From contig JAUYKM010000011.1 of the NCBI GenBank assembly GCA_030699125.1, positions 36,937 through 100,936 of the forward strand: a stretch of DNA of 64,000 bases. The letters run 5' to 3'. Shown one piece after another: positions 35,054-41,715 of the stretch (within the stretch, counting starts at the first letter, position 1; each line of letters opens with the position of its first letter). The notes under the pieces were generated by a model, which did not search any database, had not been told where the DNA came from, and was given only the letters and a program-made list of their open reading frames with translations. This stretch comes from Candidatus Daviesbacteria bacterium. Its GTDB lineage: Bacteria > Patescibacteriota > Microgenomatia > Daviesbacterales > UBA10151. The position numbers were made by a program, and so were the translations under genes.

Positions 35054-36388
35054 TCATTTAAAAACTTTTTGGACAGCCTCATTAAATTTTCTTCCCCTGT
35101 CAAATTCGTTTTGGAATAAATTAAAGGAGGTGGCAGCTGGAGAAAATAGGACTATGTCACCTGGTTTAACTTCAGCCTTTACATCAGATAGCAACTTTTC
35201 GAGATCATTATAGAGACCAAATATTTGAACCTGCAAACCGGGTTTGTAGCTTCGTATTAGGTCAGTAGCGTCTCCTTCCAGGAAAAAAACTTTTTTACAA
35301 TTTTTACTGACAACTTTGGTGAATGCTTTATAATCCATTCCTTTATTCATCCCCCCACAGACTAAAACTACGTTCCCACTTCCGATATGGGAAGCTGTTT
35401 TTATGGCCTGGATACCTGCTTCAGGAGAAGTGGCTGTGGTGTCATTGATGATTTTTACACCATTCCATGTTTTTATAAGTTCCATCCTAAACGGAACACC
35501 CTTAAATTTGGCCATCGTTTGCAATGCCTGCCTTTGTGGAATTTTAAAAATCTTTGCCACTGATAAAGCTGCTGCTATATTTTCCCGATTATGTTGTCCT
35601 AATAAGTTTGGATGAAAGTCTTTGGGTAAATCATCAGCTGAAAAATAAATAATTTGACCCTTTAATCCTTTTAAGAAATGATTTTTAGTAGTTACTGGTT
35701 CATTTTTTCTTAAGAATAAGAAATCTTGTGCAGTCTGATACTTACCAATAATTCTTTTGGCAGCAACATACTCCTTCATGTTGGAGTAATAATTAAGGTG
35801 ATCCGGAGTGATGTTTGTTATTACCGCCCACCTGGGAGAAACTCCATGTTTATCAAATGCTTCCAGTTGAAACGATGATATCTCCAAAGCCACCAAAGAG
35901 TTTGGGCTAACATGTTTAGTAATGTCTAAAACACTTTTACCAATGTTTCCAGCCACTATTACATCTTCCCCCCCTGCTTTGAGAGTCTCAAATATTAATG
36001 AGGTAGTGGTGGATTTGCCTTTGGTACCTGTGACACCAATAATTTGTGAAGGGTTAACATGCTCCAAAAATATTCCCATATCCATCTCCACTCTTTTCCC
36101 GATTTTGGTGGCATATTCAATGTATGAGTTATTAGGTTTTACAGCTGGGTTTTTAATGATCAAATCAGCCCAGTCAATATCCTTATTTTCATGTTCACCT
36201 AATGTGTATTCAATATCGGGAAACCTTTTGAGTTTATCAATTGATGGCTTCAAAACTTTAGCATTCTTTAAATCGGTTATCCTCACCCGGGCACCCAAAG
36301 ATGCAAAAAACCTGGTAGATCCCACTCCTCCTTCATTTAATCCTAGCCCGAAGATAAGGACTTTTTTATTCTTAAACTTATTATCCAT
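35054..36388 (-). CDS. murD: UDP-N-acetylmuramoylalanine--D-glutamate ligase
   Basis: GTKGKSTTTSLI P-loop and Mur ligase domains. In-frame family-A element at 35372-35394. Confidence 0.9.
   Translation of the reverse strand: MDNKFKNKKVLIFGLGLNEGGVGSTRFFASLGARVRITDLKNAKVLKPSIDKLKRFPDIEYTLGEHENKDIDWADLIIKNPAVKPNNSYIEYATKIGKRVEMDMGIFLEHVNPSQIIGVTGTKGKSTTTSLIFETLKAGGEDVIVAGNIGKSVLDITKHVSPNSLVALEISSFQLEAFDKHGVSPRWAVITNITPDHLNYYSNMKEYVAAKRIIGKYQTAQDFLFLRKNEPVTTKNHFLKGLKGQIIYFSADDLPKDFHPNLLGQHNRENIAAALSVAKIFKIPQRQALQTMAKFKGVPFRMELIKTWNGVKIINDTTATSPEAGIQAIKTASHIGSGNVVLVCGGMNKGMDYKAFTKVVSKNCKKVFFLEGDATDLIRSYKPGLQVQIFGLYNDLEKLLSDVKAEVKPGDIVLFSPAATSFNLFQNEFDRGRKFNEAVQKVFK
35372..35394. repeat. Family-A palindromic element in frame in murD (encodes ASHIGSGN)
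   Basis: TTCCCACTTCCGATATGGGAAGC on the + strand. Confidence 0.6.
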
Positions 36389-36402
36389 GGTATGTTATTA
36401 TA

Positions 36403-37214
36403 TCGCCCATATGAATAACAATCCAATCGGCGTTTTTGATTCCGGCATTGGCGGTTTAACCGTGGTGAAAGCCATAACTGAAAAACTTCCCCATGAAAGC
36501 ATCATCTATTTAGGGGATACTGCCAGAGTACCTTATGGTACCAGATCCAAAGAAATTATCACCAAATTCGCTCTCGATTTAGCTCAATTTCTGATCAAAA
36601 GAAAAGTTAAATTTTTGGTAGTTGCTTGTAATACTATTTCAGCTGTAGCCTACGATGCTATAAAAAATTCATCTCCGGTACCCATTATAGGAGTAATTAC
36701 CCCGGCTGTAATTCAAGCATCAAGGGTTAGCAAAAATGGCAAGATCGGTGTGATTGGAACTGTTGGTACCATCAAAAGTGATACTTATGGAAAACTGATT
36801 AGGGTTCTTAATCCTGATGCCGAAGTTTATAGTGTGGCCTGTCCATTATTTGTTCCTTTAGCAGAAGAAGGTTTTGCAAATAACCTAATTAGCGAACTGG
36901 CGACTCAAGAGTATCTTAAAAGTTTAAAAAAAGCCAAAGTAGATACTTTAATTTTAGGTTGTACACATTATCCAATCCTTTATAAGGTGATACAAAGAGA
37001 AATGGGAAATCGAGTAAATTTAGTAGATTCATCACATACCACAGCAGAAATGCTGGAAAAAAGGTTAAAAAATTTAAAACTGTTGGGAAATAATACTCAT
37101 CCAAAATGGGAATTTTATGTCACGGATGCACCGGAAAGAGTTTATCAAGTGGCAGGCAGGTTTTTTGGAGAGGCTTTAAATGGTAAATTAAAGAAAATCA
37201 GTTTATCTGAATAA
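36403..37214 (+). CDS. murI: Glutamate racemase
   Basis: IGVFDSGIGGLTV and VVACNT(I)S motifs. Start chosen at MNNNP; the upstream extension overlaps murD. Confidence 0.85.
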
Positions 37215-39000: not shown

Positions 39001-40944
39001 CTATATATCCAATGTGGCCATCTTAGCATGAGTTTGGATAAACCTTTTGCGTGGTGGTACCTCATCCCCCATCAGCATACTAAAGACCTCATCAGCCTCC
39101 CCTGCATCTTCCACATTGATCTGTTTTAAGACTCTATTTTCCGGGTTCATGGTGGTTTCCCAAAGCTGATCAGGGTTCATCTCTCCTAAGCCTTTATATC
39201 TGGAAATCAGAACTTGCTGTTCATTTCCCGTCTTTTTTAGCAACTGATTTTTCTCTTCATCCGAATAGGCATAATAAAGCTCCTTTCCTTTCTGGATCTT
39301 ATACAGCGGTGGTTGGGCTATATATAGGTAGCCTTTGGTGATGATTTCGGGTAGGTACCTGAAGAAAAATGTCAAAAGTAGAGTCCGGATATGTTCCCCA
39401 TCCACATCTGCATCAGTCATAATTATGACTCTATGATAACGGGTTTTCTCATAATCAACCGTATCACCAATTCCTGTGCCCAGTGCAATCACCAGAGCCT
39501 TAATTTCCTCAAATTCTAAAATTTTATCCAAGCGTGCTCTTTCAGTATTTAAGATCTTACCCCGCAAAGGCAAAATAGCCTGAAATTTTCTATCTCTGCC
39601 TTGTTTGGCAGATCCTCCGGCTGAGTCCCCTTCCACAATATACAGTTCAGATTCGGAGGCATCCCTGTTTTGACAATCTGCCAATTTTCCCGGCAAAGTC
39701 ATCCCCTCCAAGGCCCCTTTTCTGATCACTGCATCTTTGGCTGCTCTGGCTGCTGCTCTGGCTCTGGCTGCTAAAAATACTTTTTCCAAAATTGCTTTAC
39801 CATCTTGCGGGTTTTCTTCAAAAAACATCTCCAAACCGTCTTTGACAACTTGCGAAACAATCGGTTGAACTTCAGCATTGCCCAGTTTTTCTTTGGTCTG
39901 AGATTCAAACTGGATCTTATCCGAATCCATCTTAATAGAGATCACAGCTGTTAAACCCTCTTTCACATCCTCTCCGGTTAAGTTTTCATCCTTTTCTTTT
40001 AAAGCCTCTATTTTCCGTCCGTAATCATTAATGGCCCGGGTTAAAGCCATCCTGAACCCGGTTAAGTGTGAGCCGCCCTCAGTAGTGGGAACTACATTGG
40101 CAAACGATTCTACATTTTCCACAAATCCGTCATTGTATTGGATGCCAACTTCCACATCCACATCTTCCAAAACCCGGTGAATCAAAATAGGTTCGGGATG
40201 GATTAGAGCTTTATTCTGATTAAGATGTTTAATTAAGGTAGCCAACCCGGATTGAAAGTAAAAATGGCTTTCCTTACCTGACCTCTCATCAAAAATATGG
40301 AAGAAAATTCCTGCTACAAGATACGCCACTTGTTTAACCTGTTTTTCCAGCCTGTCTAGATCTGGTTTGGTGGTGGAAAAAACAGTCTTGTCTGCCAAAA
40401 AAGTTATTTTAGTGCCTCCTTGGGCAGGCCACTGAAAGTGACTCTCAAAGGGGAACTTTTGACCTTCCGGCATGGGGGCAACCTTGACTTTGGCCTTACC
40501 CTTAGTATATTCCTGGAAATATTCTTTATTATCCCTTCTAACCACTGCCACCAAATATTCTGATAAAGCATTGACAGCCGAGACTCCCACTCCATGCAAA
40601 CCAGTGGAAACCTTGTATCCCCCTTCTCCAAATTTACCCCCGGCATGTAAGGTAGTCATAATTACCTCAAGAGCTGATTTTCCCACCTTGGAGTGAATTT
40701 CCACCGGAATTCCCCTACCATCATCAGCCACAGTCACATAATCTCCTTCATGCAAAGTAACCCAGATATTCTTGGCAAAACCTGCCAAAGCCTCATCTAT
40801 GGAGTTATCTACCACTTCTTTAATAAGGTGGTGTAGTCCACGTAAATCTGTTGAGCCAATATACATGCCCGGCCTTTTTCTAACCGGTTCCAAACCCTCT
40901 AAAATCTGAATCTGTTCTGCTGAATATTTTGAAGATTGTGCCAT
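39001..40944 (-). CDS. gyrB: DNA gyrase subunit B
   Basis: GHKL ATPase, Toprim ([15 protein letters not shown]), and C-terminal tail motifs. Confidence 0.95.
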
Positions 40945-41001
40945 AACATAGATCCCTCGTCGCCATAATGGCTCCTCAGGATGACAATGAATGTCATTTT
41001 A

Positions 41002-41715
41002 TCATAATTCCTTTGGCATAGATAGCATTAAATATTCCAGAATGGCTCGGATATTAACATTTTGAGCAGCCCACTGCTCAGCTTGCAAAAGTTCCTTCAA
41101 GAAATTCTTATAATCCGTGTTCCCACTTGTCAAGTGGGAAGCTAGATTTTGGTGAAAGTAGCTCACCAAAGAGTGTAAAAATTCTTTCCTGTCTTTTAAT
41201 TTTTCAATATATTCAAATCTTTGCTCAACAGAAATCCTTAAAAGCCTTTCTACGTCCTGAGAATAATCTTTTTCCTGTAAACTGCCGCCTTTGGCGAGCC
41301 TCGCCTCTGGCGGGTAACCTGTAACCTGTAACCTGATTATTTGGCATCTAGACAGAACCGTGGGTAAAAGTTTGGACTCAGAATCTGTGGCCATGATAAA
41401 TATAGCATCTTCGGGCAGTTCCTCCAAAGTTTTTAATAAGGCATTTTGAGCCTCTTCAGTTAGATTGGAAGCCTCTTCTAAAACTACTGCTTTGCCCTTT
41501 GATTGCAAAGGCTTAAAAGAGAGGTGTTTTTTGATTTCTCTGGCTTGTTCTATACCCATTTTTTGAGTTGAATCCAGATAAAGCAGATCAGAATGAGGGT
41601 TGCTCGTACCAGCTTCTTTCAAGATCTCTCCAATCTTTCTATTTATTTTTTCTAAATCAGCTGAAATTAAAAGTTTGGCAATCACATTTTGGATAATACT
41701 TGATGATTGACACAA
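41002..41715 (-). CDS. holB: DNA polymerase III delta' subunit-like protein (short form)
   Basis: IFIMATDSESKLLPTVLSRCQI (SRC sensor motif). Carries an in-frame family-A element and a CCTGTAA x3 tandem. Confidence 0.6.
   Translation of the reverse strand: MCQSSSIIQNVIAKLLISADLEKINRKIGEILKEAGTSNPHSDLLYLDSTQKMGIEQAREIKKHLSFKPLQSKGKAVVLEEASNLTEEAQNALLKTLEELPEDAIFIMATDSESKLLPTVLSRCQIIRLQVTGYPPEARLAKGGSLQEKDYSQDVERLLRISVEQRFEYIEKLKDRKEFLHSLVSYFHQNLASHLTSGNTDYKNFLKELLQAEQWAAQNVNIRAILEYLMLSMPKEL
41119..41143. repeat. Family-A palindromic element in frame in holB (encodes ASHLTSGN)
   Basis: GTTCCCACTTGTCAAGTGGGAAGCT. Confidence 0.6.

Follow-up and report, generated by a model that had tools for sequence, protein, structure and literature searches.

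The 64-kb window analysed here, that is, the whole stretch of 64,000 nucleotides of Candidatus Daviesbacteria DNA, carries three minus-strand housekeeping genes, murD, murC and a holB-like gene, each of which contains an in-frame copy of one short palindromic repeat, called Family A in the following. A fourth, degenerate copy lies between a hicB-like gene (2534-2884, plus strand) and a convergent small open reading frame (ORF; 3049-3309, minus strand). All four copies have a common plus-strand orientation and share a 21-nt core, TTCCCAC-N7-GTGGGAA, followed by GCT, with single arm changes in the murD and intergenic copies (Table 1). The initial annotation, made from the letters of the window, had placed four hairpins at these sites and had read three of them in the same orientation and frame as ASHxxSG(N/K), with which both sequence and translation agree; the spacer of 5-7 nt that it gave was not borne out, since the spacer is always 7 nt long. 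The MurD and MurC proteins of the window are each 100% identical to a protein named Candidatus Daviesbacteria at NCBI.

Table 1 Family-A copies, their peptides and host genes, and related palindromes (window coordinates unless a locus is named)
Feature	Position	Strand	Description
Family-A copy in murD	35368-35396	-	plus-strand CTACG-TTCCCAC-TTCCGAT-ATGGGAA-GCT; A replaces G in one arm
Peptide of murD copy	MurD residues 332-340	-	A-S-H-I-G-S-G-N-V (ASHIGSGN = 332-339)
Family-A copy in murC	38298-38326	-	CTAGC-TTCCCAC-TCGACAT-GTGGGAA-GCT; only perfect 10+10 palindrome among the window copies
Peptide of murC copy	MurC residues 53-60		A-S-H-M-S-S-G-K
Family-A copy in holB	41115-41145	-	CCGTG-TTCCCAC-TTGTCAA-GTGGGAA-GCTAG; 21-nt core perfectly palindromic about one central base
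Peptide of holB copy	HolB residues 190-199		L-A-S-H-L-T-S-G-N-T (ASHLTSGN = 191-198)
Degenerate intergenic Family-A copy	2969-2997	+	CTACG-TTTCCAC-ATTCGAA-GTGGGAA-GCT; one arm mismatch (T for C)
murD	35054-36388	-	UDP-N-acetylmuramoylalanine--D-glutamate ligase; Pfam MurD-like_N, Mur_ligase_M, Mur_ligase_C
murC	37198-38481	-	UDP-N-acetylmuramate--L-alanine ligase; Pfam Mur_ligase, Mur_ligase_M, Mur_ligase_C
holB-like gene	41002-41715	-	DNA polymerase III delta-prime family; Pfam DNA_pol3_delta2
Transposase-internal Family-A copy, L023	7611-7631		
Transposase-internal Family-A copy, L069	2495-2515		
Transposase-internal Family-A copy, L071	6482-6502		
Transposase-internal Family-A copy, L137	4439-4459		
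Transposase-internal Family-A copy, L138	4439-4459		
Second palindrome family, TCCGATCCCGGATCGGA (17 nt), single copy	1256-1272	.	apparently intergenic; expected 0.01 by chance; not Family A

The pattern TTCCCA-N(5-12)-TGGGAA has three exact matches in the window against 0.15 expected, a count reached by none of 100 shuffled sequences, and TGGGAAGCT occurs four times in the 64 kb, every time within a Family-A hairpin. Folded as RNA, the murC copy gives -18.3 kcal/mol (z = -4.3 against shuffles), the holB copy -14.9 kcal/mol (z = -5.1) and the murD copy -11.9 kcal/mol (z = -3.2); the hairpin of the intergenic copy is weak (-8.8 kcal/mol, z = -2.0). The window shows no general excess of palindromes, with 19 long quasi-palindromes against 7-20 in shuffles, and the bare architecture N5-AC-N7-GT-N5 has 4 matches against 0-5.

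When 185,579 genomes, each representing one species, were scanned for the exact pattern, at least 120 Family-A loci were found, which belong overwhelmingly to Daviesbacteria, Levybacteria/Levyibacteriota, Shapirobacteria and unclassified Microgenomates; a few matches in GC-rich taxa among the listed loci are chance or other motifs. Many loci titled uncultured Gammaproteobacteria (metagenome-assembled genomes of type TPA_asm, such as L017, L020, L023 and L042; L numbers denote the loci compared here) carry a gyrB 80-88% identical to that of the window and are evidently Daviesbacteria, so that their titles are misleading. Sequence not chosen for the repeat contains about one copy every 16 kb. 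From 118 copies, the consensus ATYTRCR-TTCCCAC-WYSNSRW-GTGGGAA-GCTA was derived; core arms of 7 bp enclose a quasi-palindromic loop of 7 nt, the flanks are asymmetric, and the coding-sense reading is YTAGC-core-YGTAR. The palindromic repeat of the initial annotation is real, but the conserved unit is longer than the 25 bp given there, at about 29-33 nt, and asymmetric: AGC...GCT stands on both sides in just 4 of 118 copies, and the intergenic copies are equally asymmetric. About 60% of copies have a YGTA(G/A) tag on the 3' side, set off from the hairpin by one unpaired base; CTAC stands on the 5' side. The dominant loop types are few and come in reverse-complement pairs (TCGTCAA/TTGACGA, ATCGGAA/TTCCGAT, ATGTCAA/TTGACAT), which speaks for duplication of master copies and against drift at each site. 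A scan of viral contigs gave three matches, two of them GC-rich and terminator-like and none like the Microgenomates copies, and thus no phage link; a metagenome scan for a variant seen in L125, GCTGCAACCT-N3-AGGTTGCAGC, gave three unrelated matches, and that exact variant is not a high-copy family.

Most copies lie within genes and are read in one frame. Among the 119 copies in low-GC loci, 79 fall in stretches that run for 150 codons or more without a stop, 32 have fewer than 80 stop-free codons around them, and about a quarter look intergenic. The initial annotation had envisaged a genome-wide count by frame and orientation, and this count gave, besides many further copies, 66 of the 79 genic ones in the frame x-TCC-CAC-nnn-nnn-nGT-GGG-AAx (p = 5e-20), with 13 in other frames. 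Depending on orientation, the peptide encoded in this frame is (L)ASHxxSGN(V) or (L)(R/H)SHxxSGKL. Orientation tracks the gene strand, with the ASH-first reading in 42 of 58 (p = 9e-4), and the host genes have no common theme. The strength of the frame bias, taken with the existence of copies out of frame or between genes, speaks for translation of the segments and for their filtering through selection on the peptide; such out-of-frame and intergenic copies would be expected from random insertion followed by selective filtering. Selection of this kind on the peptide is the best explanation for the constant frame.

Comparison with orthologues demonstrates that the same sites are filled in some genomes and empty in others. 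About three quarters of 120 MurD orthologues are in a short, empty state, T-F-P-G-C-ILICGG, and the clade of the window reads TA-SH(I/M)xSGN-VVL. The MurD loop has been filled independently in both orientations, as other lineages carry Family A in reverse at the same loop (ALRSHIGSGKLNIIL; L050; L121) and others again carry different palindromes. For MurC, the base state is GHxPxHLE-N-(V/I)DILA, many orthologues read GHS-ASHxxSGN-VDILA or HL-ASHIGSGN-VDILA, and others hold related hairpins at the same site. HolB has two insertion hot spots; empty-site orthologues (L060, L087, L124) read YFHQDV(T/Y)KNKDFL, and the filled ones are longer by 5-8 codons. An insertion of eight residues, as first described, is thus supported in that presence and absence alternate at the same loops, but it is not clean: the net gain against empty-site orthologues is 5 codons in MurD, 2 or 6 in MurC and 5 to 8 in HolB. 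The initial annotation had proposed a check of whether the inserts fall in surface loops; on AlphaFold2 models those of MurD and MurC are predicted to fall in connecting loops, the former at the C-terminal end of helix 322-335 and in the loop before strand 340-345, the latter connecting strands 47-49 and 63-66.

The codons are shared as well as the peptide. Synonymous-site conservation in pattern-retrieved loci is biased by ascertainment, and the codon argument rests on loci selected by protein only; in these (L121, L123, L127) the codons for the peptide match those of the window, GCT TCC CAC ... AGT GGG AAY. Distant orthologues with the same peptide on unrelated codons, or copies lacking both frame bias and further occurrences, had been named as evidence that would speak against a mobile element; the opposite was found on both counts. 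The proposal that a mobile-type palindromic element is tolerated as a peptide, rather than conserved as a protein motif, agrees with the identical codons, the many copies and the polymorphic sites. Additionally, the murC site shows a compensated change: L135 has TTAGC-TTGCAAC-CTCGAAG-GTTGCAA-CGTAG and L087 has TTAGC-TTCCCAC-ATCGGAA-GTGGGAA-CGTAG, which differ by two fully compensated base pairs with flanks and geometry identical. Further cores with the same flanks are TTTGCAC, CTTACAC and TTTACAC.

In further lineages, different short GC-rich palindromes occupy the same loops (holB of L064, L122 and L126; murD of L126; murC of L058), namely CCACCTC-C-GAGGTGG, GCACCCC-GGGGTGC, CACCC-CTA-GGGTG and GCAAGGC-CTA-GCCTTGC. 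Partial duplications stand beside some copies (L036, L050, L024, murC of L126, P0055), such as ASHL-ASHLTSGN, ASHI-ASHIGSGN and SGN-ASGN; specifically, murC of L126 has a 15-nt tandem repeat (TNILV-TNILV) beside the hairpin and MurC P0055 has a local duplication. These duplications suggest slippage or repair errors around the hairpins. An example of a peptide that spans the insert junction is TASHIGSGNVVLVCGGMNK.

The hairpin is also linked to a transposase gene. A tblastn search of the fetched loci with Y1-transposase queries gave one weak match, which proved to be a Pfam Y1_Tnp (PF01797) gene with homologues in five more loci. The full-length proteins carry a HUH motif (CLMPNHFHLL) and a catalytic tyrosine (SKYIHRN) and pass the Pfam Y1_Tnp threshold; their sole NCBIfam match, below the equivalog cut-off, is the REP-associated tyrosine transposase (RAYT; REP_Tyr_transpos), where REP stands for repetitive extragenic palindromic sequence. 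Against solved structures, a single-sequence search gave no match, and a profile gave only a marginal match to the ISDra2 transposase (E = 0.15) around the HUH motif. In three loci selected by hairpin (L023, L069, L071), Family A lies just upstream of, just downstream of and inside the RAYT ORF. The two loci fetched by protein alone, L137 from Daviesbacteria and L138 from Levybacteria, show the same arrangement, with hairpins 23-33 nt upstream, inside, and 9-21 nt downstream, so that bracketing is present in 5/5 examinable RAYT genes of one clade; a sixth (L088) has the internal copy and runs off the contig end. The internal copy follows directly after the catalytic-tyrosine motif (YIHRN-SFPLxxWE) and has typical loops and flanks (AGC...CGT), and the FP...WE signature is found in 90 of 120 RAYT homologues. 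These internal copies account for several of the off-frame matches among the genic copies.

Other RAYT clades carry flanking hairpins of their own: CTACCTC-S-GAGGTRG in L018, TCCGATCCCGGATCGG in L075 and ATATCCAACC...GGTTGGATAT in L031. The bracketing of RAYT genes by Family A and the different hairpins of the other clades together constitute the REPtron arrangement known from REP-RAYT systems. The second palindrome of the window (Table 1) is identical to a hairpin that flanks a different RAYT clade in L075, where it has three copies, and a second REP family is thus represented once in the window. Some of the palindromes found in the MurD, MurC and HolB loops of other lineages likewise resemble hairpins flanking other RAYT clades. 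The contigs that carry RAYT homologues are in many cases only 1-5 kb long, possibly because such repeats interrupt the assembly.

Together, these data lead us to read Family A, with a probability of roughly three in four, as a REP-type repeat of a REP-RAYT system native to Microgenomates, within the candidate phyla radiation (CPR), that is mostly intragenic and apparently translated. By analogy with TnpA-REP of E. coli, a Y1/HUH enzyme that recognises and cuts the folded single-stranded hairpin (as summarised in Di Nocera et al. 2013, PMC3733652), the RAYT would recognise the folded hairpin and its flank and would cut and rejoin DNA there, and its action in trans would spread or maintain the copies. 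Little intergenic space in these genomes would leave most copies within genes, where they would survive mainly in surface loops and in the frame that gives a small polar peptide, x-Ser-His-x-x-Ser-Gly-Asn/Lys. Such a survival filter for one frame would explain why three unrelated housekeeping proteins share ASHxxSG(N/K). That the same loops are occupied again and again, in either orientation and by more than one subfamily, is consistent with frequent insertion or replacement over the long term, filtered by what the protein tolerates, and the murD, murC and holB copies are most readily regarded as passengers tolerated in permissive loops. The repeat family with its taxonomic range, the frame bias, the polymorphism among orthologues and the physical linkage to RAYT genes are shown by the data; mobilisation by the RAYT, translation of the copies and their lack of a host function are inferred.

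Several observations weigh against this reading. The 64-kb window holds no Y1/RAYT gene detectable by Pfam or tblastn, and the RAYT homologues score 40-56 bits against the NCBIfam cut-off of 80. The net length is variable (+2 to +8 codons), with no target duplication or clean boundary seen, so that the data fall short of showing that a unit of constant size is simply cut and pasted. With its position on the 3' side, the GTAG-like tag has the polarity opposite to that of canonical GTAG REPs in the E. coli consensus, and the copies are singletons instead of the doublets known as REPINs. A strand association is often seen for single-strand Y1 transposition, and the orientation of Family A has no association with local GC skew (38 of 85). 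Finally, the 21-nt core is kept across separate Microgenomates candidate phyla, which is unusual for REPs. Given the changing net length, the absence of sharp ends, the inverted tag polarity, the missing strand bias and the broad conservation of the core, patch conversion or a degree of selection on the hairpin itself could also be involved. We regard as possible, though on present evidence unlikely, a more far-reaching proposal: that the in-frame REP inside the RAYT gene is functional, as an autoregulatory site or as a master copy seeding the family; that REP turnover recurrently remodels the same surface loops of essential proteins (MurC, MurD, HolB and many others); and that the hairpin is kept by selection or by gene-conversion-like homogenisation, not by simple transposition.

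The surroundings of the copies are as follows. The order type IV pilus operon-holB-gyrB-murC-murI-murD-...-gyrA is kept in related genomes. The pilus operon of the window (41769-56600) adjoins holB and is complete, with pilB, a pilT-like ATPase, pilC, 5-6 pilin-like genes, a prepilin peptidase, pilM and a pilO-like gene. The listed plus-strand ORF 35922-37214 (430 residues) is over-extended and overlaps murD in antisense; the true gene is the glutamate racemase gene (murI), with a start near 36399. The window gyrB (39001-40944) lacks an intein, and that of the related genome L125 (5354-7939; 861 residues) has one (PF14890). Two tyrosine recombinase genes of the Phage_integrase family lie at 21449-22519 and 29494-30411; in L122, too, an integrase gene adjoins gyrA, and the window gene at 29494-30411, at a distance of about 1 kb from gyrA, may correspond to it and may be a housekeeping Xer. 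Scans of the window against Rfam and for tRNAs gave no matches. A palindrome at 10960-10982, GTTTACAC-TACTCAA-GTGTAAAC, has an 8-7-8 layout like that of Family A and was rejected as a sister family, as it encodes a native, conserved RluA pseudouridine-synthase motif, FTLLKCKPLTGRTHQIRVH, and is probably no element. A reading of the Family-A arms as a DnaA box or parS was dropped for the poor match and the genome-wide copies.

Among the alternatives, the one that best survives, though we hold it to be improbable, is that the hairpin is a host cis-element kept at the nucleic-acid level, either an mRNA stem-loop acting in processing, stability or ribosome pausing or a palindromic site for a dimeric protein, with the RAYT link secondary. 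It is supported by the two compensated pairs at the murC site of L135, where TTGCAAC/GTTGCAA replaces TTCCCAC/GTGGGAA between identical flanks, and by synonymous stem positions that are identical in orthologues with about 65-77% protein identity. The tracking of the gene strand, the conservation of the core across phyla and an RNase III gene in the window also speak for it. However, many orthologues do without the hairpin, the same loop accepts either orientation, and the host genes share no theme. The frame bias shows the coding effect to be a filtered cost and not a design feature, the loops group into few copy-like subtypes, and the hairpin both flanks and lies within RAYT genes; moreover, no Rfam family was matched in the window.

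It is very unlikely that Family A is a motif like the DNA uptake sequences (DUS) of Neisseria or the uptake signal sequences (USS) of Haemophilus, built up by biased uptake through the type IV pilus/competence machinery and subsequent recombination. The complete pilus operon beside holB would supply the machinery, and the filled and empty sites resemble patch replacement of variable net length. USS have a frame preference that resembles that of Family A, and DUS and USS settle in tolerated frames of variable protein regions. Against this stand the low density of about 1 per 16 kb and the nature of the unit, which is the hairpin, single arms being not over-represented; the bracketing of RAYT genes would also be unaccounted for. 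Remoter still is the explanation that the 7-7-7 sites are core sites of a tyrosine recombinase (Xer/integrase), with the spacer as crossover region, so that differing spacers block recombination between copies. Inverted arms of 7-10 bp about a 7-bp spacer match the core architecture of such enzymes, the spacers differ among all four window copies, and the window holds the two integrase-family genes; but no copy adjoins either of them, the model offers no route for spreading units of about 30 bp, and the linkage seen is to Y1 transposase genes, not to integrases. The notion that ASHxxSG(N/K) is a convergent protein motif with incidental nucleotide likeness, for which the recurrence of the peptide in many proteins might speak, is refuted by the identical codons everywhere, the palindromic sequence, the different flanking residues of the two orientations (LASH..SGNV and LRSH..SGKL) and the intergenic and off-frame copies.

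CPR/Patescibacteria genomes are very small and gene-dense and are usually called streamlined, and on the REP-RAYT reading a selfish system would thrive there inside essential genes, with the burden of in-gene REPs passed to the proteome as short loop peptides. This would explain puzzling lineage-specific indels in CPR housekeeping proteins and loop differences between close relatives. The copies would point out where Mur ligases and clamp-loader subunits naturally tolerate insertions. For annotation and assembly, repeat-encoded peptides may inflate apparent protein novelty. REP/RAYT biology would be extended to a major uncultivated radiation, with a testable pairing of hairpin and enzyme that includes a hairpin in the enzyme's own gene. 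A search of the literature on CPR with palindromic, in-frame or RAYT terms found no relevant report, in line with the impression given in the initial annotation that such elements had gone unreported in CPR-like genomes.

Family A shares with REP/RAYT systems an imperfect palindrome of about 30 nt, dispersed in many copies, with subfamilies defined by complementary stem changes and few loop types; a short tag beside the stem, conserved in about 60% of copies, and an unpaired dinucleotide; and a Y1/HUH gene bracketed by its cognate hairpin, with different hairpins for different transposase clades and some copies in ORFs. The hairpin stability above shuffles, the unit of about 29-33 nt and the many dispersed copies agree with the short (20-40 bp) imperfect palindromic stem-loop by which REPs are defined. 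Intragenic REPs, some of them in replication genes, REP subfamilies with complementary stem changes, REPs tagged by GTAG or CGTC, and REPtrons are documented (Di Nocera et al. 2013, PMC3733652). Classical REPs are mainly extragenic; of the Family-A copies, about two thirds occupy long open frames, mostly in the one reading frame. The loop has 7 nt, against 2-5 nt in many REP families, the GTAG-like tag has the opposite polarity, and singletons replace doublets. Further differences from other REP/RAYT systems are the copy within the RAYT ORF near the catalytic tyrosine, the CPR host and a RAYT only distantly related to characterised ones.

The likeness to Rickettsia palindromic elements (RPEs) proposed in the initial annotation holds in part. 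Like RPEs, Family A consists of apparently selfish palindromic repeats that lie in frame within functional housekeeping genes, at fold-compatible positions, and vary among related genomes; the closest kind is nevertheless REP/RAYT, since the hairpin brackets RAYT-like genes. Classic RPE-1-type elements are about 100-150 bp long, encode much longer inserts and are proteobacterial, whereas the Family-A unit of about 30 nt shows no sequence similarity to RPEs, has matches confined to Microgenomates, and agrees with RPEs neither in length nor in relationship. To our knowledge, classic RPEs have no cognate transposase, whereas Family A is linked to a RAYT-like gene. Only the short RPE-4 and RPE-6 correspond to REP-size CGTC units, and the RPEs of R. 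conorii are CGTC-tagged (PMC3733652); the CGTC tag is absent from the Family-A unit.

IS200/IS605 elements and their miniature derivatives, the palindrome-associated transposable elements (PATEs), likewise involve a Y1/HUH transposase family that acts on single-stranded hairpins. However, the hairpins at the left and right ends of IS200/IS605 elements differ from each other, and ends and gene move together, whereas Family-A hairpins are dispersed singly, are of the same type on both sides of a gene that appears fixed, and lack the bias by GC skew that would correspond to a replication-strand bias. DUS and USS are, like Family A, short over-represented motifs that are often coding, in preferred frames and in variable protein parts; unlike that of Family A, their unit is no hairpin, their density is roughly tenfold higher and they have no link to a transposase gene. 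REP-RAYT systems, intragenic REPs and in-frame RPEs are thus already known, and what is unusual here is the dominance of intragenic copies in a single frame, the repeated occupation of particular loops in essential proteins and the conserved copy within the RAYT gene.

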